A program made the position numbers and the translations under genes. The notes beneath the pieces were generated by a model, which saw only the letters and a program-made list of their open reading frames with translations, was not told where the DNA came from and did not search any database. Shown one piece after another: positions 15,077 to 38,299 of a stretch of 38,680 nt of DNA. The stretch is from assembly GCA_937929825.1 (NCBI GenBank), contig CALFUV010000018.1, forward strand, positions 1 to 38,680, given 5' to 3'. Position 1 is the first letter of the stretch. Each line of letters begins with the position of its first letter. Source of the stretch: an uncultured Patescibacteria group bacterium (GTDB taxonomy: Bacteria > Patescibacteriota > Patescibacteriia > Veblenbacterales > UBA10138).

Positions 15077-17566
15077 ATGGACATGGTATTAACACTCATT
15101 GTTATATTGGTGCCTATATTGATTGTGGCGTGGGCCCTGCATCGTTTTGGGTTTGCTGAATCAGCCATTGCTATAGACGCTGATATTTATGCTAATGCTA
15201 ATAATCAGTTATCTAAGCAATCAGCTATCTTGGATAATTCTGATTATACATCTGAAAATATCCGAAAATATTGGCAAAAACCAAAATCGGCCGCCATGAC
15301 TGTTAGACGTTTCACCGGTTTACTGGTAACAGGAGCCATAATTGTTCTTTTTACCTTCAATAACCCGTCATTTTCAAATATATTCTTAGGTTTGCTTTTG
15401 GGCATACCAGTTGGCATATATTTGAATCCCGGAAATATTTTTAATGTTCCTTACGGGCACTACATAAAGTGGTACCGGATATTCAGTTTGAAGGGGCAAG
15501 CCAGGCAAATAATGTCCTTCCATGGCGAAGCTGGTTGGCAACCTCATAAAAAATTACCAGGCTGGCGGTATGTAATTGTCGCTTGGAATAACATTAGCTT
15601 TTTCCGGTTTACCCAAGTGCCTACCGGTAAGATTTGGTATTTAATATCGCGTATTGGGGAAACCCTACCTCCGGGCAGGAAAACCGGGCGTGTTATGCCG
15701 GCTAAATTTATGGATCAGGAAGTGGAACAAACATACTTTTATGAAAATCCGGCTGCCTTTTTTGCCGTTAATGGGCAAATTGGCCGACAGCGTTCTTTTC
15801 TTACCCCCGGCTATATTGGCCCTATTGATTTAGTGGCTTTTATAGTAGATGATGGTAATAATTTGACAGAATCAGCTTCTGATAAAGGTTTTTATGAGCC
15901 TTATCTTGTGCCAGATAACAAGTTTGGTATGGTTACGTGTCTTGATTCTGCATATCAAATACCTGAAGGGGCTAATTTTGCCCGCTTGGGAGGTTTTACT
16001 GATATTGAGGCTTTAATAGCCAAAAATATCAGTCAAGAAGAAGTTGATACAAAATTTTCTGAAGCAGATCTTGCCAGAGCAAAACAATTGTTAAAAGATG
16101 ATCAGGGAATAACCAGAACCGCAATTCGTATCGATTTAAAAGACAAAGATGAAAAAATAACCAAAAAAGAAGATATTTTTCGTTATAGTGAATATGATGA
16201 GAGAAAAATTGCCGGCGAATGTTTGCGGCTTTTACTGCAAGGTCCTCCGCCTGAAGTAGCTGACTTTCAAAATATTCAAAAATTTGATGAGTTAAAAGGA
16301 TCGGTTGGACCTTATTGGCAGCTTATTCGTCCGGGCAGATTGTTGAATCTTAATCGTTTTGTGTTTGATATCAGTTTAGTTGATCCTCTCACAGTTGACC
16401 CGGGTACTTGCGAAGTAATGATTTTGTCAACAGGTGCTTTAACGAGAGATATAACCCAAAAAGGCTTTGCGGCTGGTAAAATAGTCAGGGTAGGTGGTCA
16501 TGGTATAAATATAAAAGCTCTTGAGCCTGGCCAATATCCTCTACCCGGCGCGTTAGTGGTTGACAGTGTTAATCCTATACGACGACGAGGAAGATTATTT
16601 GATTTGGTTACTGTTCCTACTCGTAAAATACCCTTATTTTTTGGAGGATCAGTAGGTTATAATATTTGGGATAATGGCTTGGAACAGGTACGCGAACGTT
16701 CGCGTGATGGTATTTGGGTGGCATTTGACTTTAATGTCATAATTACCATTCCTGCCGAATCAGCCGCTATAATTGTGGCTGAATTTGGTACTCCCCTAGA
16801 ATTTATTTCTGAGGTTATAGCCGCTACTCTTTATGGGGTGACAGTTGAATATATTAGGTCTAATGATGTTGATAACATCGTTAAGCAAAATTTACCTGAT
16901 AATAAAGAAGATGAGCCTGACGAACATGGAAATAAGGGGGTTTTGAAGATATTGTATAAAAGTTTAAAAGAGGCAATTTCTAACAGGTATGGTGTAATTT
17001 TGCATCAAGTGCGCATGGAGCACTTTGACGCCGAAGATTATTTGGAAGTATTGGGCAATAAGTCAAAAGCAGAAGCCCAAAGACAAGTCTATGAAGTGGA
17101 GGAAAAAACCCAAGCTTCACTAGAAAGTCTAAATATAGCCAAAGCCAAAGCCGAGGTGGCTTTGGTTAATCAAAGGGCTTCAAGTTATTCTGATATTTCT
17201 GAAAAACTTAATGCTATCATGGATAAGCTGGTTGCAAGGGTTGAAAAGATGGGTAAATCAGGTATTCCATTAACTAATGACCACATTGTCACTATGGTCA
17301 GACAGTTGATGCTGGATGACTATGCTTTAGTCATTACAGGACCAGAAGGAATTCCTTTTTCCCGTGCTCTTGGTATGATTACCGGCACTACCGGTACCCA
17401 AGCTATTGTTAGTCAGTTTTCTGCTAGTGGTGACGGACAGCAAGGTAATATGCTTTTAGCTATGCTAATGAAATTAGCAGAGCAGCTATCTGACAAAATT
17501 AAACAACCTCTTAATATAAATGAGATAGCTGAAAAGTTAGATTCAGAAAAAATTAAAAATAAATAA
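15077..17566 (+). CDS. Large (829 aa) membrane protein, possibly SPFH/band-7 (flotillin-like) with a C-terminal Ala/Lys/Glu-rich coiled-coil
   Basis: Two or three N-terminal TM helices. A central beta-rich region (DGIWVAFDFNVIITIPAESAAIIVAEFG...YIRSNDVDNIV) fits the SPFH pattern as in HflK. C-terminal AKAKAEVALVNQ-type coiled-coil. The call is by eye only. Good SD (aggag) upstream. Confidence 0.35.
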   Translation: MDMVLTLIVILVPILIVAWALHRFGFAESAIAIDADIYANANNQLSKQSAILDNSDYTSENIRKYWQKPKSAAMTVRRFTGLLVTGAIIVLFTFNNPSFSNIFLGLLLGIPVGIYLNPGNIFNVPYGHYIKWYRIFSLKGQARQIMSFHGEAGWQPHKKLPGWRYVIVAWNNISFFRFTQVPTGKIWYLISRIGETLPPGRKTGRVMPAKFMDQEVEQTYFYENPAAFFAVNGQIGRQRSFLTPGYIGPIDLVAFIVDDGNNLTESASDKGFYEPYLVPDNKFGMVTCLDSAYQIPEGANFARLGGFTDIEALIAKNISQEEVDTKFSEADLARAKQLLKDDQGITRTAIRIDLKDKDEKITKKEDIFRYSEYDERKIAGECLRLLLQGPPPEVADFQNIQKFDELKGSVGPYWQLIRPGRLLNLNRFVFDISLVDPLTVDPGTCEVMILSTGALTRDITQKGFAAGKIVRVGGHGINIKALEPGQYPLPGALVVDSVNPIRRRGRLFDLVTVPTRKIPLFFGGSVGYNIWDNGLEQVRERSRDGIWVAFDFNVIITIPAESAAIIVAEFGTPLEFISEVIAATLYGVTVEYIRSNDVDNIVKQNLPDNKEDEPDEHGNKGVLKILYKSLKEAISNRYGVILHQVRMEHFDAEDYLEVLGNKSKAEAQRQVYEVEEKTQASLESLNIAKAKAEVALVNQRASSYSDISEKLNAIMDKLVARVEKMGKSGIPLTNDHIVTMVRQLMLDDYALVITGPEGIPFSRALGMITGTTGTQAIVSQFSASGDGQQGNMLLAMLMKLAEQLSDKIKQPLNINEIAEKLDSEKIKNK

Positions 17567-17586
17567 AATAATAAAATAATAATTTT

Positions 17587-17618
17587 CCCCGATCAGAAGG
17601 AGCTGGTCGGGAATTTTT
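17587..17618. terminator. Bidirectional rho-independent terminator between convergent genes: 9-bp stem cccgatcag/ctggtcggg, loop aaggag, T5 downstream, A/T-rich upstream
   Basis: Hairpin read from sequence, sitting in the 82-nt gap between the stop of the 829-aa gene (+) and the stop of the M23 peptidase gene (-). Confidence 0.6.
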
Positions 17619-17648
17619 ATTTATCTCTCCCCTATCTCCACTTTAGTT

Positions 17649-18848
17649 TTAAGGCAGGTAATCCAAAGGGTTTACTGGAAGGCCATTAACTCTGATTTCA
17701 AAATGTAAATGTGGCCCGGTGGTTAAACGGCCGGCTCCGGGAGTGCCGGGCATACCGCCCACAGCGCCAATTATTTGTCCGCGCGTTACATATGAGCCTT
17801 CTTTAACATCAATTCGGCTAACATGGCCATAAACAGTGGCTAAGCCGTCTTTATGTACCAACATAATATAACTGTAGCCAAGGCCAGCATCATGAGCCCG
17901 ACCTACATAGCCTGAAGCAGCAGCTTTAATATCCGAACCTTGAGGACGCGGAATATCAATGCCGGGATGTTCAAAATAACGTCTAAAAATATAAGTAGGG
18001 TCGTAAAAGTAAGTTGATAAGCCGCGAGAGGGCGTTACCGGCCAAATAAAATTGGTATCACCTAACTGATTTAAAGCTTCTTTGCCTTGTAATTGCAGTC
18101 TTTTTCTAATTTCAGCTTCTAGGGCGGTTATTTCCCGATTAGCCTGTTGCATTTCTAATTCAGTTTGTGCTAGTAGTGACTGATATCTATTTTCTGATTG
18201 ACGAGTAAGCTGTAATAAATTTTGCTTGCTTTGTTGTTCATTTTCTAAAGCGGCTTTAGCTAATTCTGTTTCTTCCCGTGATTTAACCAGCTGCACCCGG
18301 TAACTAGCCAAATCCTGCTGGCGGCGTTCTAATTCTGTTTTTATTTGACGCAATTGATTAATATCGCGTTTTATTGAACGTTCCAGTTCTTCCAAATGAT
18401 TAAGTTGATCAAAAAAAGAAGATATGGAGGCGTTGAGTATCATAACTTCCAACAAGCTTTTTTGATCAGCCTGATGTAGTTGCCTAATTAGCTCCCCTAC
18501 TTGATTTTTTTTATTGGCAATATTTTGTTCGTGTTGGGCAATATCTAAGCTAACAGCTTGAATTTGCAGAGTTACGGTATTTAGCTTGAGTTCATTAGCT
18601 TCCAACTCCAGTTCCGCTTTAGCAATTTTATCATCCAAAACTTCCAGTTGGCGTCTTAAAGTAGTGGCTTGCGTCTGTTTTTCTATTACCGCACTTTGAT
18701 AATCGTTTATGCTTTTCTTTAATTTTTCCAATTCCTGTTGTTTGGTTTGAATTTGACTATTTATTTCGCTAATCGTTGTTTGAGCTGTTAAGCTCGAACC
18801 AGCTACTAGCCCCAAAAATATCAGAATAATAATTTTTTTATAAGACAT
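17649..18848 (-). CDS. M23 (LytM-type) metallopeptidase with long N-terminal coiled-coil; EnvC-like murein hydrolase or activator
   Basis: Signal/TM at N-terminus, about 250 aa of heptad-rich coiled-coil, C-terminal M23 domain (HPGIDI..., GYVGRAH, GPHLHFEIRVNG). Confidence 0.8.
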   Translation of the reverse strand: MSYKKIIILIFLGLVAGSSLTAQTTISEINSQIQTKQQELEKLKKSINDYQSAVIEKQTQATTLRRQLEVLDDKIAKAELELEANELKLNTVTLQIQAVSLDIAQHEQNIANKKNQVGELIRQLHQADQKSLLEVMILNASISSFFDQLNHLEELERSIKRDINQLRQIKTELERRQQDLASYRVQLVKSREETELAKAALENEQQSKQNLLQLTRQSENRYQSLLAQTELEMQQANREITALEAEIRKRLQLQGKEALNQLGDTNFIWPVTPSRGLSTYFYDPTYIFRRYFEHPGIDIPRPQGSDIKAAASGYVGRAHDAGLGYSYIMLVHKDGLATVYGHVSRIDVKEGSYVTRGQIIGAVGGMPGTPGAGRLTTGPHLHFEIRVNGLPVNPLDYLP

Positions 18849-20301
18849 TTGTTTGATTGATGATTTTTTCTGCTTTTTCCAGTCTAGCCAAGCATTCTTT
18901 TTGTCCTAGTACCATAGCTACTCCAAAAACATCCGGAGATTCTTTTTCACCGGTTAAAGCCACGCGCATAGGCCATAATAAATCGCGGCGTGAAAATGTG
19001 CCCGGTCTGATTAGTACTTCCAGTGAATTCTTAATATTTTCTATTTTCCAATCATTAATATTTTTTAAAATATGAATAGCTTCTTTTAAAGCCCGTGCTG
19101 TTTTACCCGCTGAACTTTGGACGGGAATTATTAATTCCGGGTTAAGAATTGCAGGTGGGTGAAAAAACCAATTAGCTTGAGAGATAACCGAATTTAGTGT
19201 AGTTAAGCGATCTTGCAGTAGTTTGGTTAGTAATAAGGTCTTGCCGACAGGTAAATAAGATCCTCCAGCTATGGCCGCATAATAAGGTTGAAGCAGATTG
19301 TCAAGCTGTTCGCTTGGTAAAGAGCGAATATAATAAGCGTTAAACCAATTAAGTTTATCAATATCAAAAATTGCCCCGGCTTTTTGTACTCTTTCTAGTT
19401 CAAATTCTTTTTCTAGTTCTGCCAAATTAAATATTTCTCGATTGTCTTTGGGATGCCAGCCAAGAAAAGCTAAAAAATTAAGCAGAGCCTGCGGTAAATA
19501 CCCCTCTTTTTTATAAGTTTGTACCCAGACTGCTTCACCGTCACGTCTTTTGGAAAGCTTGGCTTTATGGATATTTAATACATTTGGTAAATGAGCAAAT
19601 TCTGGCGGCTGCCAACCAAATCCAGCATAAATTAACAGATGTTTGGGGGTGGAGGGTAACCACTCTTCTCCTCTGATAACATGAGTAATTTTCATTTCAT
19701 GATCGTCAATCACATTAGCTAAATGGTAAGTAGGATAGCCGTCTGATTTAAGAAGTATGGTATCTTCTAGAGAGAAATTATCAATTTTGATTTGTCCGCG
19801 AATAAGATCTTTAAAAATAGTTTGACCGGGTGGTATTTTAAGGCGAATAGTAAAAGGTGTCCCGGCAGATAATTTTTCTTGAATATCCTTTTGAGTCAAG
19901 TTTAAACAGGCACGATCGTATTTGGTAGGTTGTTTTTCGTTCTGTTGTACCTGACGCAGAACTTCTAATCTTTGTAAACTACAGAAACATCGATAAGCCG
20001 CTTGCTGTTTTATTAATTCTTCAGCCCAATGTTGATAGTGAGCTAAACGTTGTGATTGAATATAAGGTTCGTAAGGCCCGCCGATGTCAGGTCCTTCATC
20101 CCAATTTAAACCAAGCCATTTAAGACCGGACAACAATCTTTCTAAACTACCTTCTACTAAACGTTCACGGTCTGTATCTTCCAAGCGAATAATAAATTGA
20201 CCTTTATTTTTTCTGGCAAACAAATAATTATATAAGGCGGTGCGAGCGCCTCCTAAATGAAGTTCGCCGGTAGGTGATGGGGCAAAGCGTACTCTGACCA
20301 T
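18838..20301 (-). CDS. gltX: Glutamyl-tRNA synthetase
   Basis: HIGH motif (PSPTGELHLGGARTALYNY), KMSKS (KLSKR). 487 aa with an anticodon-binding C-terminal domain. Confidence 0.85.
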   Translation of the reverse strand: MVRVRFAPSPTGELHLGGARTALYNYLFARKNKGQFIIRLEDTDRERLVEGSLERLLSGLKWLGLNWDEGPDIGGPYEPYIQSQRLAHYQHWAEELIKQQAAYRCFCSLQRLEVLRQVQQNEKQPTKYDRACLNLTQKDIQEKLSAGTPFTIRLKIPPGQTIFKDLIRGQIKIDNFSLEDTILLKSDGYPTYHLANVIDDHEMKITHVIRGEEWLPSTPKHLLIYAGFGWQPPEFAHLPNVLNIHKAKLSKRRDGEAVWVQTYKKEGYLPQALLNFLAFLGWHPKDNREIFNLAELEKEFELERVQKAGAIFDIDKLNWFNAYYIRSLPSEQLDNLLQPYYAAIAGGSYLPVGKTLLLTKLLQDRLTTLNSVISQANWFFHPPAILNPELIIPVQSSAGKTARALKEAIHILKNINDWKIENIKNSLEVLIRPGTFSRRDLLWPMRVALTGEKESPDVFGVAMVLGQKECLARLEKAEKIINQTNVL

Positions 20302-20307
20302 ATTATT

Positions 20308-21342
20308 TTATTGGTTTACTGAAGAAATTATCTTTTTTAATTCTACCATAGCTAGTCTGCCTAAATCTCGTCGTACCGGAGAAATATGTTCCAATAGTTT
20401 AGTATAGTGAACCCATTTATAATAAGAGGCTTCTCTGGGATTTTGATTAATTTTTGGTCTGATTTCATTAACGCTAGCTACAGCTAAACTTTGTTCTTGG
20501 CCTATATAACCGTCTGGGTTAAGTCTTTTTAGCTGTCGCAAAAAATCTTTTGACCAACGATATTTATAAATTCTTTCTTTAATAATCAGCAGTTTAATAT
20601 TTTTTAAACCCACTTCTTCCAATACTTCACGTCTAGCGGCCTGAGCTAGGCTTTCGCCTTTTTCAATACCTCCTTGAGGAAATTGCCAATCCTTGGGATT
20701 ATGTTCCGAACTTCTAATAAGTAAAATCTCATTTTTGGGGTTTATTATACAAATAGCGATATTTGGTCGAAAACGACTTTTGTGGGCTGTAAATCGCAAA
20801 TTTAAAGCCATTAGACGCTTATAAATAGGCCCCTGAGGCGTTAAAGTACTTTGCATTAAACTAATTGTTTGCACAGGTATTTTGTATTTAAATGGTTTTA
20901 GTTGAGGCAAATCATTAGCTGACTGTGGTTGTTTAAGGCGTACCAAAGTTATATGTGCTGGTCTGGCAATAGCTGATAATTTCATTGATTTAATTTGAGC
21001 TGATAAATTTTGTTGTAACCTAGTAAATTCTGACGAAGACTTTATAGTTAAGGCGATAATTTTAGGTTGACGTTTTGGTATAAATTCAAATTGATGAGTT
21101 TCAAGATTAAAAGTTTGCCAATTAGTTAATACTTTAGTTAACATTTTTTTAAAATCATTTAAGATATAGGTTGGGATTTCACCAATAAAAACAACTGTCA
21201 AATGCCAATTATTCTCCTCTACCCATTTACCATTGAATTTATTTTTGAGTTGAAAAATAAGATTTGACAATTTTTTTCTTAATGAAATAGGCAGTTCAAT
21301 AGCAATAAAAATTCTCATGATTTCGATATTTAATTTTATCAT
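20308..21342 (-). CDS. Fusion protein: N-terminal 2H phosphoesterase (LigT/ThpR-like 2',5' RNA ligase / 2',3'-cyclic phosphodiesterase) plus C-terminal Nudix hydrolase. Probable true start is the internal Met at 21318 (MRIFIAIELP)
   Basis: Two H-x-T-x motifs (HLTVVF and HITLVR) define the 2H fold. A perfect Nudix box GGIEKGESLAQAARREVLEEVGL lies in the C-terminal half. Confidence 0.7.
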   Translation of the reverse strand: MIKLNIEIMRIFIAIELPISLRKKLSNLIFQLKNKFNGKWVEENNWHLTVVFIGEIPTYILNDFKKMLTKVLTNWQTFNLETHQFEFIPKRQPKIIALTIKSSSEFTRLQQNLSAQIKSMKLSAIARPAHITLVRLKQPQSANDLPQLKPFKYKIPVQTISLMQSTLTPQGPIYKRLMALNLRFTAHKSRFRPNIAICIINPKNEILLIRSSEHNPKDWQFPQGGIEKGESLAQAARREVLEEVGLKNIKLLIIKERIYKYRWSKDFLRQLKRLNPDGYIGQEQSLAVASVNEIRPKINQNPREASYYKWVHYTKLLEHISPVRRDLGRLAMVELKKIISSVNQ

Positions 21343-21383
21343 AAAAAATAGCTTTAGTCCAGTAAATTTGTTATAATTTAAAT

Positions 21384-22778
21384 ATGAAACAGCTTTTGAG
21401 ACATTTATTTTTTATTAGTTTTTTAAGCCTTTTTAGTTTATCATCTTTACTGGCACCTGTTATTTCTCAGGCACAGGAGCAGTTTGATTATAATTATATA
21501 ATTTCTGATCGTGATTTAACTGATGCCAATTCTTGGAATTTAGATCAAATTCAAGCTTTTCTTATTGCTAAAAAAAGCGTTTTAGCCAATTATTTTGATT
21601 CAATTACCGGTTTGCGTGCCTCGCAAATAATTTATCAATCAGCACAAGATTTTCAAATAAACCCAAAATTTTTAATAGCTCTAATACAAAAAGAACAAAG
21701 TTTGGTCGAACATCCTTCGCCACAACCATCACAGTTTGACTGGGCAACAGGTTATGCAGTCTGCGATGGTTGTAGCACCAATGATCCGGCTTTAGAAAAA
21801 TTTAAAGGTTTTTATAACCAAGTGTATAACGCTGCCAAACGTATCCGAACTAGTTATTTATTTGATTTAGAAACTAGTGGTATGACTTTATCTGGTTTTG
21901 GTCCGGGTATAACTAAATTAGTTAATGGTATACCGGTAAAACCAGTTAATAATGCTACAGCCGCGGTTTATACTTATACACCACATCTGCACGGAAATAG
22001 ATTATTGGCTCAGATTTGGCGCAGGTTTTTTTCACAGTCTTATCCTGATGGTTCTTTAGTGAAAGTTGATAATGAACCTGATATTTGGTTGATTGAAAAT
22101 GGTTTGCGAAGAAGATTTGTAAACCAGTCTGTTTACTTATCTCGTTATAGTGATTTTTCTCGGGTATTGAATGTTAGCCGGCAGGATTTACTTAAATATT
22201 CTGAAGGTCGGGAAATTCGTTTTGCTAATTATTCTTATTTACGAACACCACGCGGTACAGTTTATTTATTAGTAGATGATGTTTTACGGGGTTTTGCTTC
22301 AGCTGAAGCTTTGCGAAAATTAGGTGTTAATCCAGAGGAAATAATCGATGTGCAAGCTGAGGATATAATGGAATATGAAGAAGGAAAACCTATTACTACC
22401 GCCAGCTTATTCCCTTTAGGTGCATTATTACAGGATAAAAACAGCGGCGGTGTTTACTGGATTAGAGATGGAATAAAGTATCCGATTTGGTCACGTGAAA
22501 TAATGACAGCCAATTTTCCCAACCGTAAGATTATAACAGTTACTAGCACAGAACTTGAAAAGTTTGCTACTGGCCAACCGGTTACCTTTCGTGACGGTGA
22601 ATTAGTTAAATCTTCTGATGAATCTACAGTTTACCTAATATCTAATGGTCAGCGTCGTCCGTTTGTATCAGCTGAAGATTTTGAAAATTTAGGTTTTTCT
22701 TGGCAGAACATAAGGGTTACCAGTTCAACTGTTTTGGCTTTGCATGAAATAGGTGAACCTATAATGATTAATTTTTAA
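21384..22778 (+). CDS. Secreted protein with cleavable signal peptide, N-terminal lysozyme-like/transglycosylase-like region (…LIALIQKEQSLV…) and four C-terminal repeats of about 50 aa (vYLI.NG.RRpF.s.e.f..lG…)
   Basis: Signal peptide MKQLLRHLFFISFLSLFSLSSLLAPVISQA. Repeat copies begin near IWLIENGLRRRF, VYLLVDDVLRGF, VYWIRDGIKYPI and VYLISNGQRRPF. Confidence 0.5.
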   Translation: MKQLLRHLFFISFLSLFSLSSLLAPVISQAQEQFDYNYIISDRDLTDANSWNLDQIQAFLIAKKSVLANYFDSITGLRASQIIYQSAQDFQINPKFLIALIQKEQSLVEHPSPQPSQFDWATGYAVCDGCSTNDPALEKFKGFYNQVYNAAKRIRTSYLFDLETSGMTLSGFGPGITKLVNGIPVKPVNNATAAVYTYTPHLHGNRLLAQIWRRFFSQSYPDGSLVKVDNEPDIWLIENGLRRRFVNQSVYLSRYSDFSRVLNVSRQDLLKYSEGREIRFANYSYLRTPRGTVYLLVDDVLRGFASAEALRKLGVNPEEIIDVQAEDIMEYEEGKPITTASLFPLGALLQDKNSGGVYWIRDGIKYPIWSREIMTANFPNRKIITVTSTELEKFATGQPVTFRDGELVKSSDESTVYLISNGQRRPFVSAEDFENLGFSWQNIRVTSSTVLALHEIGEPIMINF

Positions 22779-22781
22779 TAT

Positions 22782-23558
22782 ATGTCTATAGTTGCTTCAG
22801 GTATTTTACCCAATTCTCCCCTGCTTTTACCTAAACTTTCACCATTAGTGATAAAGAGAACCAGCCGGACCAGAGAAGCTATAGATAAATTACTTCATGA
22901 AATGTATGCCCGACAGCCGGATATAGTGATGTTAATATCTAGCGCCGGCCAGCCGGCTGATGTCACATCTTTATTACAAGCCTCTACTTTAAAATATTCC
23001 TTTTTTCCTTGGGGTGATGTAGTTACAAAGGGTGAAGTTAAACTGGCTACTGGTTTTACTCATAAACTTAAAGAAAGCATGGAAACATCGTTTCCCATCA
23101 TATTAAAAAGCGTTGATGAATTACCGGTGTATTTTGCAGTACCTACCTTATATTTACAAAATATTCTTTCTTGGCAAAATTATATTTTTTTGGAAATAGC
23201 CAACAGTTTGGGTTTTGACGAGTTGTATAAATTAGCTAAGTATATTAAAGAACAAATAAACCAATCGACCAGCAGGATATTATTAGTGGTTTGTGGTAAT
23301 TTATCTGAACACTTTGGACGATATCAAGAGCAAGCTACTGTTTTTGACCGTTCATTTCAGGCGGCTTTAATTTCTTTAAACTCTTCAGGTTTAGCAGATC
23401 TTAAACAGAGTAAACCAAAAGGTTTACGAGAGTCTTTATTAAATCAGTCTCTTTTATTAAGCCTTATTTTAGCTGATTTGCCTATTCAAGTATCAATTTT
23501 TTCTTATGAAGTTCCGGCGCGGGTTGGTTATCTGGTCGCTGGTATAAATGAAAAATAA
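22782..23558 (+). CDS. Hypothetical protein (258 aa); very weak resemblance to the LigB/MEMO-type fold (…LLVVCGNLSEHFG…)
   Basis: ORF only. Tightly packed between the flanking genes. No firm family assignment. Confidence 0.4.
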   Translation: MSIVASGILPNSPLLLPKLSPLVIKRTSRTREAIDKLLHEMYARQPDIVMLISSAGQPADVTSLLQASTLKYSFFPWGDVVTKGEVKLATGFTHKLKESMETSFPIILKSVDELPVYFAVPTLYLQNILSWQNYIFLEIANSLGFDELYKLAKYIKEQINQSTSRILLVVCGNLSEHFGRYQEQATVFDRSFQAALISLNSSGLADLKQSKPKGLRESLLNQSLLLSLILADLPIQVSIFSYEVPARVGYLVAGINEK

Positions 23559-23561
23559 AAT

Positions 23562-25397
23562 ATGGACAAAAATATCGTGCAAATAGCTATACTTAGAAAA
23601 TTACCCCGTTCTAAGGGAGTGTTTGATTATAAGACACCATTAGATTTAAAGGTTAAACTCGGTGATTTGGTTATGGCACCATTTAAAAGTGGTAATTATC
23701 CGGGTATTGTAGTTGGTATAGGTGCCAGTCCAAAAGCGCCTCAGAATCTACGTAGTATTAATTGTGTATTGAGTTCAGATTTTTTAAGAAAAGAAGAATT
23801 ATTTATGATGAGTTGGTTGGCCAAAAATAGCGGTGTGAGTCTAGGATTGGCGGGTAGTATGTTTGTACCATTTTTACCGACCAGTAAAAAGCCTTATAAT
23901 AATCGCCCTCAGCCTCTTGTGGTTCCAAAAAAGCTACAATCTCAGCCGATAATTGTAATACCAAAATCTTTGGAACACAAAAAAAAACTGGCATTGCAAC
24001 TGATTAATCAGGTTTTATTGCGGAGACAACAAATTTTGATATTGGTGCCGGAAGTATTTTATATACAATGGTGGCGAGATTTTATTAGTTCAACAAAAAA
24101 GGTGCAAGAGTTTTATAGTGGTCAGCAGTCAACTATAGCTCGTTTGACTTGGCTTGAGACTAGGGCCGGACAGGCAGATGTTATAATTGGTACTCGTGCA
24201 GCTTTGTGGCTACAATATCATAATCTAGGCGGTATTATAATTGATCAGGGTGAAAACGAAAATCATGTACAGTCAAACCAGAATCCCAGATATGATGCTG
24301 TTGAAGCGGCTCAGCAATTAGCAGGTGTTTGGCATAGTTCATTGGCTATATTTTCGTTTGCTCCGCGTTTGGAGCAGTGGCAAGCTAGTAATAATAAAAA
24401 ATTTCTCTGGCGTGAATTTATCTTGCCGATCAATAGGTTTAAAATAGTGAGCACTTTTGGCTTAAAAGTTCAACAAGGTTTGATAACGGATGAACTTCAA
24501 CAATTAGTGGAAAAAAGTTTGACTAATAAAGGACGGGTTTTATTGTACCTTAATAAGCGGGGAGCTCGCGGTTTTATATGCCAAGATTGTGGTTATCAGG
24601 CTCGATGTTCGCGTTGCTCCAGAACTATGATGGAATCTGATCATGATAGGTTAATGATTTGTTATCATTGTCAGGAAAAACAAAATATACCTCTCCCCTG
24701 CCCTAGTTGTCATGGTAATAGTTTTAGATATACCACCCGTGGTTTGGATGATCTTTATAAATCTGTTAATAATTTATGGCCCGAGGCTAAGGCTATTTTA
24801 TTGCAAGATAGTTTTGATTACTCAACTATTAATTTAGTTAAGAAAGCTAGATTAATAGTTGGCACGAGTACAGCTTGGAGAGTGTTGTATGGCCAAAATT
24901 TAGAATTAGCAGCTTTAGTCCGTGCAGATAATGAAATTAGCTTACCTGAATTTAGATCAGTAGAGAGAACTTGGCAATTATTGAGAAATTTATTAGTTAG
25001 CGCCAAAACAGTTGTTTGCCAAACAAGTTTGCCTAAACATCAACTATGGCAATATATTACTAGTTATAAAACGAACACTTTTTATCAAGCTGAATTAACA
25101 CAAAGAAAACTTTATCATTATCCGCCCGTAGTTAAAATATTACGACTGACTATAGAATCTTTAAATAATGAAACAGCAAAAAAAGAGGCTTTGGACCTTT
25201 TTTCCATAGTATCTAAAAATTTGCCCACTTCAGCCGAAGTTATTGGTCCATACCCAGATTACTATCAACGTCGTGGAAAAAAATGGCGTTGGCATATTTT
25301 ACTGAAATATCCTAATAATTGGCCGTTTGAGCAATTATGGTCACAGTTGCCTGATAATGTTATTATTGATCCACAGCCATATTTTATATTAAGCTAA
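23562..25397 (+). CDS. priA: PriA-like primosomal protein N' homologue with degenerate helicase motifs (no Walker A, and Walker B DEEH replaced by DQGE), but an intact N-terminal 3'-DNA-binding domain and Cys-rich zinc-binding region
   Basis: Collinear similarity to PriA. N-terminal segment VQIAILRKLPRSKGVFDYKTP...GDLVMAPFKSGNYPGIVVGI. Middle segment QILILVPEVFYIQWW...ADVIIGTRAALW...LGGIIIDQGE. Zinc region CQDCGYQARCSRCSRTMM...CYHCQEKQNIPLPCPSCHG. There is no GxGK[ST] anywhere in the 611 aa. Confidence 0.6.
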   Translation: MDKNIVQIAILRKLPRSKGVFDYKTPLDLKVKLGDLVMAPFKSGNYPGIVVGIGASPKAPQNLRSINCVLSSDFLRKEELFMMSWLAKNSGVSLGLAGSMFVPFLPTSKKPYNNRPQPLVVPKKLQSQPIIVIPKSLEHKKKLALQLINQVLLRRQQILILVPEVFYIQWWRDFISSTKKVQEFYSGQQSTIARLTWLETRAGQADVIIGTRAALWLQYHNLGGIIIDQGENENHVQSNQNPRYDAVEAAQQLAGVWHSSLAIFSFAPRLEQWQASNNKKFLWREFILPINRFKIVSTFGLKVQQGLITDELQQLVEKSLTNKGRVLLYLNKRGARGFICQDCGYQARCSRCSRTMMESDHDRLMICYHCQEKQNIPLPCPSCHGNSFRYTTRGLDDLYKSVNNLWPEAKAILLQDSFDYSTINLVKKARLIVGTSTAWRVLYGQNLELAALVRADNEISLPEFRSVERTWQLLRNLLVSAKTVVCQTSLPKHQLWQYITSYKTNTFYQAELTQRKLYHYPPVVKILRLTIESLNNETAKKEALDLFSIVSKNLPTSAEVIGPYPDYYQRRGKKWRWHILLKYPNNWPFEQLWSQLPDNVIIDPQPYFILS

Positions 25398-25888: not shown

Positions 25889-26810
25889 AAAATTTGTTTT
25901 TTTTGGTTCACATGATTTTTCCAGGCGTATTTTAGCTGGTTTATTAGCCGGTGGCCAACAGCCGGCTTTAGTTATATCAACTATTAGCAAACCAAGTGGT
26001 AGAAAAAAAATAATTGAGCCCACACCGGTTGAAGTATTAGCAAAAAATGCTCAATTACCTTTTGTATCAATAAAAAGCTTCAAACAAAGTTATCCGCAGG
26101 AATTAACCCAAATACAGGCTAATTTTGCGATCTTAGCTGCTTTTAATCGTCTTTTGCCTAAGTCCTTATTACAGCTGTTTCCATTGGGAGTTATTAATGT
26201 TCATCCCTCATTATTACCACTTTATCGTGGACCATCCCCTATTCAGCAGGCTATTCTTGACGAGCAAGCTGTTACCGGCGTAACTTTAATAATTTTAGAT
26301 GAAGAAATGGATCATGGACCTATCATAGCTCAGGAACAATTGAGTCTTAATTATGACGATGCGCTAACTTTATTTATTCGGACAGCTGACTTAGCAGTTA
26401 ATATGCTTAAACTAATAGTACCTGATTATTTAGCAGGTAAAATTAAACCTCAAATCCAAGATCACAGCCGAGCTACTTATACCAGTTTAATTACTAAAAA
26501 ATCTGGTCAAGCTGATTTTTCTTGGCCAGCTAAAAAACTTGATAATATGCGTCGGGCTTATACTCCTTGGCCGGGGCTATGGACTACTTGGCAGGGCTCC
26601 ATTTTAAAATTTATTAAAACAACTGTTAGCACAGAAAAAAATATTAAACCGGGACAAGTTATTTGGTTAAATAATAGTTTACTGATTGGTTGTGGGCAAA
26701 ATACTGCTTTACAAATAATAGAATTGCAACAAGCTGGTGGCCGTCCTCAAACAGCCAAAGATTTTATAAACGGTCACCGCTCTTTTTTAAGAACAAGTTT
26801 ACCAAGTTAA
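25875..26810 (+). CDS. fmt: Methionyl-tRNA formyltransferase
   Basis: Overlaps def by 14 nt (classic def-fmt operon). NVHPSLLPLYRG formyltransferase motif. C-terminal Fmt domain. Confidence 0.85.
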   Translation: MVWSEKFVFFGSHDFSRRILAGLLAGGQQPALVISTISKPSGRKKIIEPTPVEVLAKNAQLPFVSIKSFKQSYPQELTQIQANFAILAAFNRLLPKSLLQLFPLGVINVHPSLLPLYRGPSPIQQAILDEQAVTGVTLIILDEEMDHGPIIAQEQLSLNYDDALTLFIRTADLAVNMLKLIVPDYLAGKIKPQIQDHSRATYTSLITKKSGQADFSWPAKKLDNMRRAYTPWPGLWTTWQGSILKFIKTTVSTEKNIKPGQVIWLNNSLLIGCGQNTALQIIELQQAGGRPQTAKDFINGHRSFLRTSLPS

Positions 26811-28336
26811 GATTGAGGCGTTTCAGGATATGTATCAATTCTTTTCTTTTCTGTTACCCAAAAACCTAAATATTTACCGAGCATTAGCCGCGTTTGAGCT
26901 TCTGTTGCCGGTATAGCTCCAAAAATAAGCATGCTGGCAGGAAAAAGTAACCATTGTAAAACCATAACAATATTTTTATACCAGCGATATTTAGCTGGGC
27001 GTGGTGGCAACATAATATTAGATAAGGCCGCGCTAAAAACTAAGCCGATCATAGCTAAACTCATTAGCCATTGTAAAGCTACAGGAGCGCTGTGGGCTAA
27101 CAAAGAAGTTTTATCAGCTTGATCAAGTAGCCATAATGGTAAATGACCAAGCACAAATATTATTATAGGAGCAGTTGCCCATGAATAAACACCTTCTAAT
27201 TGATTCCAAATATAGCGGAATTTAGTGTTAAAAGATACCCGTTTAGAACGCCAAAAATGATAAGCCATATAGGCAAAATTTTCTACCCCATAGGCCCAAC
27301 GTCTTTGTTGTTTGTATTGATTAATTATACTACGCCAAAAAGAACCGTTATATACTGTGTCCATGGAAATCGGTAAATAAATAGGTGTGACGCGGTAATT
27401 ACCATCATAGTGAACAAAGCATTGCAGAAAAATACGAGAATCTTCAGTTACAATATCATTTTGCCAAAAACCAACATCAACCAGTGCTTTCATAGGCATG
27501 GAGTGAGAAGAAAAAGTGAAAAGTCTTTCTGGTCGCACTAAATCAGTGAATAGCCAAAAAGTGGTAGAATTGGCGATGATGCGTATTAATGAAGGTGAAT
27601 CCCAAATATTATTATTGTATACAGCCACTGGCTGATAACTAGAATGTAAAGGATCAGGAATAGTCAAATAAGTGTAGGTGAGTAAGGCAAAATAATTTGG
27701 ATGCGGACAGGAATCAATATCAAAACTGGAAACAATAATATTCTCGTATTTTAGACCTAAATTATCAACATATTCCTGAGCGCGATGTCCGGCCCAGTTG
27801 ATATTAGCACCCTTACCGGCTAGTTCACCCGTAATATTAGCTGGGTGGAGTGTTACTAAAAAATGACCAAAATGTCCAGCAAATTCTGTTTTTAATTTTT
27901 CAGCTATATTAAGAAAATTTTCCTGATCTCTTTCTTCACCGGCTAACACTACAATAAACTTTTCTTTAGGATAATTAACCTTAGATAAAGCACTTAAAGA
28001 TGTTCTTACTATATCAATAGGTTCTCGATAAGTTGGTAAAAAAATTAAATGATAAATTTTATCAAAACCGATTTGTGCTTGTGCTTTAGGCAGCCAATCT
28101 TGTTGTAGTGTCCAGCTATAATGTCGCCAGCCAGCAATCATATGAATTAGTAAATATGACACTCTCATTAACCAGTAAAGATCAAATAGTATAATAACGT
28201 ATATAGCCCACAATGGCTTAAGGAACGACAAAACTACAATACCGATTAAAGTTATCCAAACCAGTATACCAGGAATCATTTCAAAGAGACGATAAACAGT
28301 TGGTCGTGGTAAACGTTTTAAAAAGCCCCAAACCAT
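26807..28336 (-). CDS. Family-2 glycosyltransferase, cellulose-synthase-like (processive beta-glycosyltransferase) integral membrane protein
   Basis: PTYREP, DID, TED (IVTEDSRIF) and QxxRW (QQRRW) motifs in the canonical order, with flanking TM helices. Confidence 0.65.
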   Translation of the reverse strand: MVWGFLKRLPRPTVYRLFEMIPGILVWITLIGIVVLSFLKPLWAIYVIILFDLYWLMRVSYLLIHMIAGWRHYSWTLQQDWLPKAQAQIGFDKIYHLIFLPTYREPIDIVRTSLSALSKVNYPKEKFIVVLAGEERDQENFLNIAEKLKTEFAGHFGHFLVTLHPANITGELAGKGANINWAGHRAQEYVDNLGLKYENIIVSSFDIDSCPHPNYFALLTYTYLTIPDPLHSSYQPVAVYNNNIWDSPSLIRIIANSTTFWLFTDLVRPERLFTFSSHSMPMKALVDVGFWQNDIVTEDSRIFLQCFVHYDGNYRVTPIYLPISMDTVYNGSFWRSIINQYKQQRRWAYGVENFAYMAYHFWRSKRVSFNTKFRYIWNQLEGVYSWATAPIIIFVLGHLPLWLLDQADKTSLLAHSAPVALQWLMSLAMIGLVFSAALSNIMLPPRPAKYRWYKNIVMVLQWLLFPASMLIFGAIPATEAQTRLMLGKYLGFWVTEKKRIDTYPETPQS

Positions 28337-28344: not shown

Positions 28345-28800
28345 TTATTTATTTACATGAACCATTGGTTTTAAATACATAGCCAACAGCATAATCACTA
28401 AAAATATTAAAAAGCCCCAAACACAAGATGATACTCTGGTTAGGGCAAAAGTTTCCCAAAAGACAGGCCCTTTTTGAATAGCTGGTAAACAAAGTTCGCG
28501 CCAAGATACCCAGCCTGAAAAAATTACGCCAATAACAGCTGTCAACTTTAGCCAAATCAATAGTTTAGTTTGTTTCTTCAGCATTAATCCGCTAAGAATA
28601 GCTAGTAATATAAAAAGTGTTAAGCCGTATGGGCACGGAGTTAGACCCAATATTGATAAACCAACACAAGAAAAAATTCCTGGCTCTGTTGCTGGCGCTA
28701 TAATCTGTCTGATAGTAACAATGGCAGCAAAAATAACTCCAGTCACTGATAGGTAAAAAATTATTTTGAGAATTTTGAGATTCATAGAGTTAATAGACAA
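28345..28800 (-). CDS. Small polytopic membrane protein (about 4 TM, 151 aa), function unknown
   Basis: Hydrophobic profile. Overlaps the RuBisCO stop by 11 nt and directly precedes the GT2 gene, so it is probably co-transcribed with both. Confidence 0.5.
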   Translation of the reverse strand: MSINSMNLKILKIIFYLSVTGVIFAAIVTIRQIIAPATEPGIFSCVGLSILGLTPCPYGLTLFILLAILSGLMLKKQTKLLIWLKLTAVIGVIFSGWVSWRELCLPAIQKGPVFWETFALTRVSSCVWGFLIFLVIMLLAMYLKPMVHVNK

Positions 28801-30250
28801 TTTTTGGTTCAGTACCCCATAATTTTACAGCTTCAGCTAAAGCCGAGGAGGGATTTTTAGCCACATAGTCTTTAATACTCATGCCAGCCATTATAGCTTG
28901 TCTGGCTTCAATAGCGGCTTCTACCCCCTTTTCTGCTCCGCCGGGATGACCAAGCACGCCACCTCCTAATTGAATGAAAATATCCAAGCCGAGTTTTTGT
29001 ACTACAATATCCAAGACTCCGGGATGTAAGCCACCTGAAGCAACCGACCAAACAGGTTTGATATTGTACCATTTTTGACCTAAGGTATTAAGTTGTGGCT
29101 GAGCTGGAGTTTCATTTTGTCCTAAAGCCGCTGCGGTATTAACTTCTTCCTTTGTAATATGAAATTGACTATACGGATCATATCCATTTACTTCATCAGG
29201 ATTCATAGCAGCGTCTATAAGTTCACTTTCTCCGTAATCTTGCATTTTTGATTTTGGACTACCAATATGTAATGAATCTACGCCTAACAAACGGTAGATT
29301 TTTGCCAAAGCAAGCATGGAAACACTAAAACCCCACAAACTACCCTGCCCTCTTAAACCAGGGCCTGATTCACGAGTTATAAAACCATGCATGGCACGAT
29401 GAGCATGAATAAAAAGGCCGGGATTATTAAGACGCATACTATGAAGACTGGCAAAACCAGTAGTAACCACATCTATCATCATCACCCGTCCACCTTCTTG
29501 AGCTATAAGCTCTGCTCTTTGTTTCATAACTTCAATATCAGAATGAGTAATATTGCACAAATAAAGCTTTTTTTGACCAGTACGAGCTTCTATTTCCTGT
29601 TGTACAGCGTGTACTGCTCGACAGCGGTCTTCAAATTTATTAAAAGGGAGACTAGTCAGATTCTCATCGTCTTTAATAAAATCATAGCTACCATCTCCGG
29701 CTAACCATATTCGTCTTGCTAAAACTGCCTGTTCTTCAGCAGTGCGTCCTACCTTTGGTTTAGGTACAGTACCCATAATTGGTTTTTTATCATGGTGACC
29801 AAGCAATTTTCGCAAACCATCAATGCCAAATTGTGGTCCGGGAAATGATTCTACAAAAGGACGAGGAAACCTAATATCAAATATTCTCAGGCCTTGAATC
29901 ATTTTCATACCTGCAATATTACCAACAGGCCCGGCTAAAAAACCTGACATATTACCCGGTTCAAATAGATCAACACGGTAAGCAACTTTGAACATGTGAT
30001 CCTGTAAATTAAGATCAAAAACTATAGCTTTATAATCTTCTGCCCGGGCCATACCTGAATCCGGCCGTGATTCCACTTTTGTCCAAGTGCCGGTTGATGA
30101 TTCGGCCGCTACTGAAGCAGCTGCTTGGGGAAACATATTTTCACCCACACCCGGAGCCAGCTGAAGTTTAAAAAGAACTATTAAATATTTTTCATCTGAT
30201 TCGGGTGGTTGCCAGCCTGTTGGCGCTAAATAATCAAGTTGTACAGCCAT
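28790..30250 (-). CDS. rbcL: Ribulose-1,5-bisphosphate carboxylase/oxygenase large subunit, form III-like or II/III-like (archaeal or CPR type)
   Basis: Diagnostic RuBisCO active-site segments: AAESSTGTWT, GTVPKPKVG, DFIKDDENLTS (carbamylated Lys), HAHRAMHG, SGGLHPG, LGGGVLGHPGG. 486 aa with an extra segment between LHIGS and SGGLHPG compared with archaeal form III. Confidence 0.85.
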   Translation of the reverse strand: MAVQLDYLAPTGWQPPESDEKYLIVLFKLQLAPGVGENMFPQAAASVAAESSTGTWTKVESRPDSGMARAEDYKAIVFDLNLQDHMFKVAYRVDLFEPGNMSGFLAGPVGNIAGMKMIQGLRIFDIRFPRPFVESFPGPQFGIDGLRKLLGHHDKKPIMGTVPKPKVGRTAEEQAVLARRIWLAGDGSYDFIKDDENLTSLPFNKFEDRCRAVHAVQQEIEARTGQKKLYLCNITHSDIEVMKQRAELIAQEGGRVMMIDVVTTGFASLHSMRLNNPGLFIHAHRAMHGFITRESGPGLRGQGSLWGFSVSMLALAKIYRLLGVDSLHIGSPKSKMQDYGESELIDAAMNPDEVNGYDPYSQFHITKEEVNTAAALGQNETPAQPQLNTLGQKWYNIKPVWSVASGGLHPGVLDIVVQKLGLDIFIQLGGGVLGHPGGAEKGVEAAIEARQAIMAGMSIKDYVAKNPSSALAEAVKLWGTEPKIVY

Positions 30251-38087: not shown

Positions 38088-38149
38088 AAATAGCCATTAT
38101 ACTATATCATATTTTTTAGTTTATCACCAGATTATTAATATTTCTGCCT

Positions 38150-38178
38150 TGATAAGAAAGTCTTTTTTAGTTATAATT
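38150..38178 (+). promoter_or_regulatory. Promoter TTGATA-N17-TATAAT, about 13 nt upstream of tRNA-Gly
   Basis: -35 at 38150-38155 and perfect -10 at 38173-38178 with 17-nt spacer. The predicted start lies 6-7 nt before the mature tRNA 5' end. Confidence 0.55.
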
Positions 38179-38191
38179 CGACTGCTTAAAG

Positions 38192-38265: not shown

Positions 38266-38299
38266 TATTTCACTTTTCGATTTTTGACCGACGAATTGG

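Follow-up and report, generated by a model that had tools for sequence, protein, structure and literature searches.

Organization of the locus

The window considered here is the whole stretch of 38,680 nucleotides that was analysed, from an uncultured bacterium of the Parcubacteria group (candidate phyla radiation, CPR). On its minus strand, positions 20308..21342 hold a single ORF of 344 aa with no internal stop codons or frameshifts, and 344 open codons would arise by chance with a probability of ~1e-11 at the base composition of the window. Pfam places the 2H profiles LigT_PEase (7.5e-16) and 2_5_RNA_ligase2 (7e-9) and the NUDIX profile (2.3e-20) in this one protein, in agreement with the original prediction of a 2H phosphoesterase fused to a Nudix hydrolase. 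The features of the locus are given below; residue numbers (H47, E239, etc.) count along the 344-aa ORF.

20308..21318, minus strand: fusion gene with corrected start, 336 aa plus stop codon (MRIFIAIELP...SSVNQ), defined by the ORF, the homologue alignment, TIGR02258, and a promoter-like box
20800..21318, minus strand: ThpR/LigT-type 2H RNA 2',3'-cyclic phosphodiesterase domain, ORF residues 9-181, defined by TIGR02258, motifs, and fold
20773..20799, minus strand: inter-domain linker, approximately residues 182-190 (RFTAHKSRF), with low pLDDT and poorly conserved alignment columns
20311..20772, minus strand: RppH/NudH-like Nudix pyrophosphohydrolase domain, residues 191-344, with the Nudix box at 224-246
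18838..20301, minus strand: gltX, glutamyl-tRNA synthetase, 6 nt downstream of the fusion gene (Pfam tRNA-synt_1c, 2.7e-108, and Anticodon_2)
17649..18848, minus strand: coiled-coil M23 peptidase, last gene of the putative operon, with an 11-nt overlap with the gltX stop (Pfam Peptidase_M23, 2.2e-25)
21333..21366, minus strand: promoter-like -35/-10 pair, either TGGACT, 17 nt, and TAAAAT with an upstream TG, or TTTACT, 17 nt, and TATGAT
17588..17611, no strand assigned: GC-rich hairpin of 9 pairs, 6 of them G-C, between the convergent M23 gene and the gene for an 829-aa protein

The annotated ORF had been suspected of starting eight codons too early, and the true start is almost certainly the ATG at 21318, which yields a protein of 336 aa. 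This assignment is based on three observations. The start codons of 21 of the 25 aligned homologues fall exactly at the equivalent position, with the sequence MR(L/V/I)F; the TIGR02258 alignment opens with profile position 1 on ORF residue 9; and the upstream ATG at 21342 is overlapped by an extended -10-like box (TGATAAAAT). Promoter-like sites are no commoner in the sequence than in shuffled sequence (17 versus an expected 15.3), and the argument from this box is one of position and of recurrence in orthologous loci. In six of seven orthologous loci, corresponding to five of six distinct sequences (L085 being the exception), a similar extended -10 or TACAAT box precedes the start codon by 6-14 nt.

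The 6-nt gap to gltX and the 11-nt overlap of gltX with the M23 gene are exact. No terminator-like sites have been found between the fusion gene, gltX, and the M23 gene, and the hairpin at 17588..17611 is the sole one with a long GC-rich stem within 17300-21800. The only other terminator candidate (17836-17848, 5 pairs, plus strand) is internal to the M23 gene. The three genes are arranged as would be expected of an operon and are probably co-transcribed, as had been proposed. In all seven related loci (L081-L085, L087, and L088; six distinct proteins), gltX follows either the fusion gene or a standalone Nudix orthologue and the M23 gene comes third. The fusion-gltX-M23 order is kept in loci that share 39-43% identity, including those with a different upstream flank.

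The ThpR half

By sequence, the N-terminal half is a ThpR-type 2H enzyme above the curated equivalog cut-off, with RNA>p hydrolysis as its predicted activity. The TIGR02258 score is 119.8 bits (cut-off, 65.7), and residues 9-181 cover profile positions 1-179 of 180. Mutagenesis has defined the extended motifs HxTxxF48 and HxTxxR130 in E. coli ThpR, in which the Phe stacks on the terminal base and the Arg is essential (PMC4201822). The fusion has the corresponding motifs HLTVVF (residues 47-52, F52) and HITLVR (130-135, R135), and H47, T49, F52, H130, T132, and R135 are invariant in the alignment of 25 homologues.

The fold and both motifs are shared with E. coli ThpR (LigT/YadP; TIGR02258; 4qak, 5ldi) and the Deinococcus CPDase (5h7e). 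Foldseek gives target-normalised TM scores of 0.81-0.86 against 5h7e, 1vdx, 1iuh, and E. coli LigT, while the sequence identity to the solved ThpR structures is only 20-26%. The ThpR enzymes known so far stand alone, at ~180 aa, whereas here the domain forms the N-terminal half of a 336-aa protein. To our knowledge, no physiological role has been established for ThpR in any bacterium, E. coli included.

The Nudix half

The Nudix box, G224-L246 (GGIEKGESLAQAARREVLEEVGL), is an exact fit to GX5EX7REUXEEXGU, and its E239, E242, E243, and G245 are invariant among the 25 homologues. It lies 88 residues after the second HxT motif rather than the approximately 60 first estimated.

The original prediction named ADP-ribose derivatives or nucleotide caps as possible targets of the Nudix half. 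This half is neither a generic Nudix domain nor of the ADP-ribose type, but of the RppH/NudH type. The top sequence match in the PDB is E. coli RppH (phmmer 4e-15, residues 190-342 against RppH 6-158), and the other solved Nudix proteins score at least 24 bits lower, the lupin Ap4A hydrolase 1f3y being the next best. Comparison by hhalign with E. coli RppH gives 99.4% (E 5e-22), and the best fold match found by Foldseek is RppH 4s2y (TM 0.79, target-normalised; 30% identity). E. coli RppH (NudH/YgdP; 4s2x, 4s2y, 6vcq, 7sp3), an RNA 5' pyrophosphohydrolase and Np4-decapping/Ap(n)A hydrolase, is collinear with the fusion over the whole domain at 30-33% identity. The top NCBIfam matches are also RppH models, but all fall under their cut-offs (NF001937, 76.3 against 139; NF001938, 72.7 against 116; NF001936, 72.0 against 118). 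Because these equivalog cut-offs are missed, we use the name RppH-like and not RppH.

In E. coli RppH, the 5'-phosphates and Mg2+ are bound by R8, N10, Q37, E53, E57, Y77, Q95, E120, and K140 (PMC7144940). These residues map to R192, N194, Q223, E239, E243, Y261, Q282, E304, and R324, respectively. Seven of the nine positions are invariant in the family, Q282 is nearly so, and N194 varies (N/S/V). E56 of RppH is conserved as well, and K140 is replaced by Arg. R8, Q37, Y77, Q95, and E120 are thus common to the two proteins, whereas the residues of the RppH cleft for the nucleobase of the second RNA nucleotide (R27, S32, V137, and F139) are not conserved and vary within the fusion family. S32, V137, and F139 align with D218, S321, and V323, while the counterpart of R27 is ambiguous (S211 or E213, with R210 adjacent). 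The nucleobase cleft may be built differently from that of E. coli RppH, and the lack of conservation means that sequence cannot separate RNA from other substrates such as Np(n)N. Besides RNA, E. coli RppH is itself active on Ap(n)A and nucleotides. The conserved RppH residues make ADP-ribose derivatives a less likely target than 5'-terminal polyphosphates, caps, or Np(n)N.

Proposed function of the two heads

We propose, with a probability of roughly one half, that the protein is a bifunctional ThpR and RppH-like RNA-end-processing enzyme encoded by the first gene of a nudix-gltX-M23 operon. By homology, the ThpR head would be a metal-independent hydrolase that turns a 2',3'-cyclic phosphate into a 2'-phosphate, with acid-base catalysis by H47 and H130, R135 engaged in the transition state, and F52 stacking on the terminal base. 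The Nudix head, also by homology, would hold Mg2+ through E239, E242, E243, Q223, and E304 and cleave a terminal pyrophosphate linkage. RNA ends would be the most likely substrate class shared by both heads. The Nudix head would convert a 5'-tri- or diphosphate or an Np4-capped end to a 5'-monophosphate, licensing 5'-end-dependent decay. Metal-independent RNases leave 2',3'-cyclic phosphate ends, and these would be opened by the ThpR head. The window also encodes, at 34211..35617, a beta-CASP/RMMBL ribonuclease, and 5'-end-dependent RNases belong to this family. The enzyme would be expressed in a Parcubacteria subclade from a short-leader promoter, as the first product of a housekeeping operon.

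The two heads would be tethered by a flexible linker of ~10 residues into a single RNA end-deprotection enzyme. AlphaFold models both domains confidently (pLDDT >90 in each, 67 at residues 181-190), but domain-domain packing and a fixed orientation are not confident (pTM 0.58). Structure prediction had been suggested as a way to see whether the active sites face each other; it delivers the domains but no confident mutual orientation, so the model itself does not argue for cooperation of the heads. It is doubtful that a single RNA is processed at both ends by the two heads, the 5'-tri/diphosphate or cap being stripped and the 3' cyclic phosphate opened in one encounter, and we know of no described two-ended enzyme for RNA decay licensing or end healing. 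More speculatively, the invariable position before gltX could reflect a preference for tRNA or its fragments as substrates.

The breadth of the RppH/NudH clade, which includes Ap(n)A hydrolases, also allows a tentative alternative in nucleotide house-cleaning. The Nudix head would then act on Ap4A/Ap5A or other NDP-X and the ThpR head on free 2',3'-cyclic NMPs, and the two would be fused since both clear RNA or nucleotide by-products. This possibility is in line with the lupin Ap4A hydrolase as the next-best solved Nudix match, with one homologue named '(di)nucleoside polyphosphate hydrolase' by JGI, and with the absence of the RNA-specific base-cleft residues. Ap4A and Ap5A are by-products of aminoacyl-tRNA synthetases, and a synthetase gene is always next downstream in the loci examined; however, GluRS needs tRNA for adenylate formation and is not a noted Ap4A producer, and the link to gltX may just be conserved gene order in streamlined genomes. 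Further house-cleaning enzymes of the window are Ham1/RdgB and an HD-domain protein, and ThpR also turns over 2',3'-cAMP (PMC4201822). On the other hand, R192, Q223, Y261, Q282, and R324 correspond to the residues that hold RNA 5'-terminal phosphates in E. coli RppH, and the base-stacking HxTxxF motif is typical of the RNA-acting 2H subfamily.

Comparison with other fusions

RNA-end processing by two heads can be compared with several known systems. In fungal and plant Trl1/AtRNL, a 2H CPDase is likewise fused to an enzyme that prepares 5' ends, a polynucleotide kinase, together with a ligase. In those proteins the kinase works on 5'-OH and the ends are finally ligated, whereas here the 5' module is a pyrophosphohydrolase. 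With no ligase present and a 5' pyrophosphohydrolase as partner, a logic of decay is more likely than one of repair.

In phages, genes for 2H enzymes and for the analogous cREC phosphodiesterases occur in linkage with Nudix genes, or fused to them, in RNA-repair and ADPr>P-processing neighbourhoods, including a Nudix-cREC fusion in Serratia phage BF (Iyer, Burroughs, Aravind 2022, PMC9503650). As in the present fusion, a cyclic-phosphate phosphodiesterase is coupled to a Nudix enzyme in these systems, with a proposed role in RNA>p or ADPr>P resolution. The phage conflict systems have sirtuin/KptA, PIN, and RNA ligase partners, and their fused enzyme is cREC and not 2H. The Parcubacteria fusion, unlike these, belongs to the housekeeping genes of the chromosome, has an RppH-type Nudix domain, and lacks such partners. 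Neither the 36 other window proteins scanned nor the related loci examined include KptA/Tpt1, sirtuin, macro, RNA ligase, or PIN, and RtcB is likewise absent from those 36 proteins.

Two further ThpR and Nudix fusions have been found, the P0054 family (7 clusters) and P0134. They resemble the present fusion in having an N-terminal ThpR and a C-terminal Nudix domain in 310-325 aa, but differ in genomic context and have no linkage to gltX. Their Nudix halves are NadM-type/MutT-like in the P0054 family and NudG/MutT-like (NUDIX_4) in P0134. The nearest standalone ThpR relatives of the P0054 family come from Rickettsiella/Aquirickettsiella. The closest models to its Nudix half are NadM-type and MutT-type, and the standalone relatives of this half are named ADP-ribose pyrophosphatase by JGI. 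The P0054 family and P0134 are independent fusion events. The pairing, which the original prediction did not recognise as a standard architecture, is uncommon but not unique to this lineage.

The phage neighbourhoods and the P0054 family bear on the suggestion of a relay, in which one small substrate would pass through both sites in turn. ADP-ribose-1'',2''-cyclic phosphate is a by-product of Tpt1/KptA. In such a relay, the ThpR head would open it and the Nudix head would split the resulting ADP-ribose-1''-phosphate to AMP and ribose-1,5-bisphosphate, products that could feed the RuBisCO-based nucleotide salvage of CPR bacteria; a RuBisCO large-subunit gene lies 8 kb from the fusion gene in the window. 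The analogous phage couplings and the Nudix type of the P0054 fusion favour this scheme. Nevertheless, we consider it very improbable, and less likely than two-headed RNA-end processing. The Nudix half is RppH-type and meets ADP-ribose pyrophosphatase models only at E 0.02-0.03, the window encodes no Tpt1/KptA, sirtuin, macro, RtcB, or RNA ligase, and no channel or fixed interface between the sites is seen in the model.

Distribution and probable loss of the ThpR domain

The survey gives ~37 sequence clusters of the fusion family, from Patescibacteria/Parcubacteria wherever the source names a taxon, confirming that the architecture is uncommon. An assembly error merging two genes is rejected on account of the same uninterrupted architecture in these independent clusters from different samples, which also makes unlikely the frameshift or stop between the domains that had been raised as a concern. 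The 25 aligned homologues share 37-50% identity, with the catalytic residues of both halves invariant. No description of the fusion has been found in the literature on ThpR with RppH, RppH in Patescibacteria, or 2H/cyclic phosphodiesterase-Nudix fusions. The fusion is real, rare, and conserved, and is made of ordinary parts.

When the genome contigs were scanned with the family alignment, the matches listed included only ordinary rppH genes from Proteobacteria and Verrucomicrobia, at 30-39% identity to residues 190-340 and with a dominant QFPQGG pattern. Two gammaproteobacterial loci (L032 and L037) appeared to match over residues 95-335, but their ORFs are ordinary rppH-ptsP with a spurious upstream extension; rppH precedes ptsP in them, whereas the fusion precedes gltX. 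The phage collection contained no fusion, only nudH/rppH genes.

Standalone RppH-like genes (n=4) are nested among the fusions. Two of them (L087 and L088) occupy the identical slot upstream of gltX, and a third (L086) precedes a gene that takes the place of gltX. In a rough NJ tree, read without a species tree, none of 100 bootstraps groups the standalone forms as monophyletic, and 93 of them require a minimum of 4 state changes. That these genes are truncated gene calls has been rejected for L086 and L087, since the upstream sequence has no ThpR-like frame; in both, a TACAAT box lies 6 nt before the standalone ATG, and in L087 only 84 nt separate the Nudix gene from its divergent neighbour. 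A search with the Nudix half alone returned one protein (P0173), a standalone relative. No close standalone relative of the ThpR half was found in the homologue search, its best one scoring 135 bits compared to ~230 bits for the standalone Nudix genes.

The nesting suggests that the ThpR domain has been lost repeatedly, at least 3-4 times, while the Nudix part has always been kept. The coupling of ThpR to Nudix would thus be dispensable, with the Nudix activity as the indispensable core of the enzyme and the ThpR head as an accessory that several lineages have discarded. Retention of the Nudix gene in ThpR-less lineages, twice in the same slot, is unexpected if the Nudix enzyme needs the ThpR product, and sequential action on one small substrate is weakened accordingly.

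The same losses also fit a fusion without functional coupling, with two housekeeping enzymes acting on unrelated substrates and ThpR an easily lost passenger. The flexible linker, with no confident interface, agrees with this, as does an operon that mixes a tRNA synthetase with a cell-wall peptidase, which suggests that genes are packed regardless of pathway. We regard this explanation as unlikely. The fusion persists at the divergence noted above with every catalytic residue of both halves unchanged, and ThpR-Nudix fusions have arisen at least 3 times independently, in bacteria that are unrelated and with Nudix partners of different subtypes, which argues for a functional reason.

Implications

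Both halves belong to well-studied enzyme families, and new chemistry is not expected. The public names of the homologues reflect one domain ('RNA 2',3'-cyclic phosphodiesterase', '2'-5' RNA ligase', '(di)nucleoside polyphosphate hydrolase'), and as a result the second activity is missed in metabolic reconstructions of CPR bacteria. The conserved covalent link of ThpR to an RppH-type enzyme provides a testable clue to a possible role of ThpR in RNA 5'/3' end metabolism, and the fusion and its natural ThpR-less variants, two of them at the same locus, offer a ready comparison for the contribution of the ThpR domain. If both heads do act on one RNA molecule, such a two-ended enzyme could partly explain RNA turnover in minimal CPR cells with few RNases.

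The Fusion Protein and Its Two Domains

The original prediction of a ThpR/LigT-type 2H phosphodiesterase joined to a Nudix hydrolase is real and was described accurately. The gene occupies 20308..21342 (−) as a single uninterrupted frame of 344 codons, a length with a chance probability of ~1e-11 at the base composition of the AT-rich window (36.8% GC). Pfam places both domains in one protein, with matches to LigT_PEase (7.5e-16), 2_5_RNA_ligase2 (7e-9), and NUDIX (2.3e-20). Both predicted 2H motifs are present, HLTVVF at residues 47–52 and HITLVR at residues 130–135, numbered from the ATG at 21342. The Nudix box, GGIEKGESLAQAARREVLEEVGL (residues 224–246), is an exact fit to GX5EX7REUXEEXGU and begins 88 residues past the second HxT motif, not ~60 as had been estimated.

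The N-terminal half matches the NCBIfam model for RNA 2',3'-cyclic phosphodiesterase, TIGR02258, at 119.8 bits against a cut-off of 65.7, with ORF residues 9–181 aligned to profile positions 1–179. In E. coli ThpR, the extended motifs are HxTxxF48, whose Phe stacks the terminal base, and HxTxxR130, whose Arg is essential (Remus et al., PMC4201822). The fusion has both. The closest folds found by Foldseek (target-normalised TM 0.81–0.86) are Deinococcus CPDase, PH0099, TT0787, and E. coli LigT.

The top NCBIfam matches of the C-terminal half are five RppH models, which align end to end and all score under their curated cut-offs (e.g., 76 vs 139 bits). Among solved structures, the closest by sequence is E. 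coli RppH (4e-15, residues 190–342 against RppH 6–158), which scores at least 24 bits above every other Nudix family, and profile comparison with the same protein gives a probability of 99.4% (E 5e-22). By fold, too, E. coli RppH leads (target-normalised TM 0.79, 30% identity); DHNTPase and Ap4A hydrolase rank lower. In E. coli RppH, the 5'-terminal phosphates and Mg2+ are held by R8, N10, Q37, E53, E57, Y77, Q95, E120, and K140 (PMC7144940), which correspond, in the same order, to R192, N194, Q223, E239, E243, Y261, Q282, E304, and R324 of the fusion. Across the family, seven of the nine are invariant and Q282 nearly so; N194 varies (N/S/V). The RppH cleft residues for the second RNA nucleotide (R27, S32, V137, F139) are not conserved, the alignment at R27 being ambiguous. 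Judged by these residues, the chemistry and phosphate grip are RppH-like and RNA specificity is not readable from sequence; therefore, we use the term "RppH-like" rather than RppH for this domain.

An AlphaFold2 model made from 25 homologues has high within-domain confidence (mean pLDDT 91.8). The domain arrangement is not confident (pTM 0.58; pLDDT 67 in linker residues 181–190), and a Foldseek search returned no solved chain covering both domains.

Start Codon and Putative Promoter

The proposed start at ATG 21318 is borne out by the homologues, 21 of 25 of which begin exactly at MR(L/V/I)F, equivalent to ORF residue 9. Position 1 of TIGR02258 pairs with the same residue, also in favour of this start, from which a product of 336 aa is most likely. 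A third line of support is an extended −10-like box, TGATAAAAT (21333..21343), which overlaps ATG 21342 and sits 14 nt upstream of ATG 21318. The promoter scan on its own has no statistical significance. Of seven orthologous loci (six distinct sequences), six (five distinct) have TGnTAAAAT, TATACT, or TACAAT 6–14 nt before the start, and boxes this close to it suggest leaderless or very short-leader mRNAs for the putative operon across the clade. Such boxes were seen upstream of the starts in L081, L083, L084, L086, and L087, and no obvious Shine-Dalgarno was seen by eye at these starts.

Conserved Gene Order and Probable Loss of the ThpR Head

As predicted, gltX (18838..20301) starts 6 nt past the fusion stop codon and overlaps the M23 peptidase gene (17649..18848) by 11 nt. 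No terminator-like hairpin lies between the three genes. The sole hairpin with a long GC-rich stem in 17300–21800 (17588–17611, 9 bp) is 3' of M23, between the convergent M23 and 829-aa genes, and could terminate transcription in both directions. The genes flanking the operon are as follows.

15077..17566 (+), 829-aa membrane protein converging on M23, whose C-terminal half gives only a weak SPFH/Band 7 match (2e-7)
21384..22778 (+), 464-aa protein without a Pfam match, its N-terminus resembling a signal peptide
22782..23558 (+), 258-aa protein whose orthologues match LigB (PF02900; weak matches in two of three loci)
23562..25397 (+), 611-aa PriA homologue, in which Pfam finds only the PriA 3'-DNA-binding and C-terminal domains

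The fusion-gltX-M23 order is kept in four homologous loci at 39–43% identity, even with a different upstream flank. In most loci the upstream divergent set is that of the window: the 464-aa secreted protein, which has no family match, the LigB-like protein, PriA, Def, and Fmt. The 464-aa/258-aa pair is the divergent neighbour of a fusion or standalone Nudix gene in L081, L083, L085, L087, and L088 (four distinct).

An exhaustive search identified standalone Nudix proteins very near the Nudix half (P0041–P0043, ~225–230 bits) and no standalone ThpR of comparable closeness (best 135 bits). P0042 occupies the exact slot of the fusion, between the divergent 464-aa/LigB/PriA genes and gltX-M23, with an upstream spacer of only 84 nt. 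Another standalone relative, P0173 (57% identity), precedes the gene in the gltX position in L086. Rooted with E. coli RppH, a neighbour-joining tree of the Nudix halves places the four standalone proteins at scattered positions inside the fusion clade, and fusions make up all the deepest branches. In 100 bootstraps the standalone proteins never form a monophyletic group, and 93 replicates need a minimum of four state changes. The simplest reading is one old fusion, then repeated clean deletion of the ThpR head with the Nudix gene kept.

Nudix content near the operon varies among related genomes; extra standalone NUDIX genes were seen directly after M23 (L085 6256-6729, 157 aa) and between priA and def (L087 464-862, 132 aa).

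Distribution and Independent Fusions

A word-indexed search of 5.8 billion proteins gave 25 full-length clusters (331–361 aa, 37–50% identity), each carrying both Pfam domains. A further dozen or so full-length members, more distant (P0029–P0040), came from an exhaustive HMMER search covering 1.84 billion representatives at 50% identity. Source names, where given, are Candidatus Veblenbacteria and Candidatus Kerfeldbacteria, both of the Parcubacteria group, or "Patescibacteria group". The fusion is absent from the phage records searched, and a literature search found no published description of it. It is a rare, conserved, lineage-restricted protein made of two known enzyme families.

Two other pairings, both in unrelated genomic contexts, came from the exhaustive search. 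P0049 and P0054 (L089 5001-5972) join ThpR to a NadM-type/MutT-like Nudix domain; this family of seven clusters has standalone Nudix relatives that carry the annotation ADP-ribose pyrophosphatase, and its closest standalone ThpR relatives come from Rickettsiella/Aquirickettsiella. P0134 (L091 613-1545) joins ThpR to a NudG/MutT-like domain. Unlike the RppH-like half of the window fusion, these Nudix halves are non-RppH, and ThpR-Nudix joining has occurred at least three times independently. A fusion without functional coupling is unlikely, since a pairing that is rare but recurrent argues for some functional logic.

Other Features of the Window

8835..9392 (+), HD-domain protein adjoining the Ham1/RdgB-type gene
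9437..10063 (+), Ham1/RdgB-type non-canonical NTP pyrophosphatase
26807..28336 (−) and 28345..28800 (−), two genes downstream of RuBisCO in the same orientation, without family match
28790..30250 (−), RuBisCO large-subunit homologue (RuBisCO_large 2.6e-57, plus the N-terminal domain)
34211..35617 (−), beta-CASP/metallo-beta-lactamase/RMMBL ribonuclease of RNase J/CPSF type, 468 aa
35921-35992 (−), tRNA-Gln(TTG)
38062..38334 (+) and 38197..38469 (−), two probably spurious 90-aa ORFs that overlap tRNA-Gly(CCC) at 38191-38264

The HD-domain and Ham1/RdgB genes are further nucleotide house-cleaning genes. Form II/III-like RuBisCO in CPR bacteria serves nucleotide/AMP salvage. The helicase Walker A (GSGKT) and DExH motifs of the PriA homologue look degenerate by eye, e.g., "IIIDQGENENH" for the expected DEEH, and the homologues in L081, L083, and L087 match the same two Pfam families only. 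PriA may be ATPase-dead in this clade.

Possible Function

The comparisons show that this family keeps both active sites intact under purifying selection, that the fusion and its place in the operon are conserved, and that of the two parts the Nudix one is indispensable. We propose, with a probability of about 0.5, that the fusion is an RNA-end enzyme, and infer its substrates as follows. At the 5' end, the RppH-like head would take off the pyro/orthophosphate or an Np4-type cap, and at the 3' end, the ThpR head would open a 2',3'-cyclic phosphate to a 2'-phosphate; together, the two heads would strip protective end groups. The beta-CASP ribonuclease is possibly a 5'-monophosphate-dependent nuclease acting after the RppH-like domain. 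Less likely, the two heads could instead clear small molecules, namely Ap(n)A and 2',3'-cNMPs, in a house-cleaning role.

The original prediction suggested that the two activities could act in sequence on one substrate; in the ADP-ribose form of this relay, Appr>p would be converted to Appr-1''p and then to AMP and ribose-1,5-bisphosphate. In its favour, a role in ADPr>P processing has been proposed for phage 2H/cREC-Nudix associations (PMC9503650), and the RuBisCO gene lies nearby. On the other hand, the Nudix half is RppH-type, Tpt1/KptA or related genes are absent from the window, and the Nudix gene is retained after ThpR loss. We consider this relay very improbable.

Database names for the fusion reflect one domain only ("RNA 2',3'-cyclic phosphodiesterase", "2'-5' RNA ligase", "(di)nucleoside polyphosphate hydrolase"). 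The main value of the fusion is that it corrects these one-domain annotations and offers a testable clue to what ThpR does in the cell.
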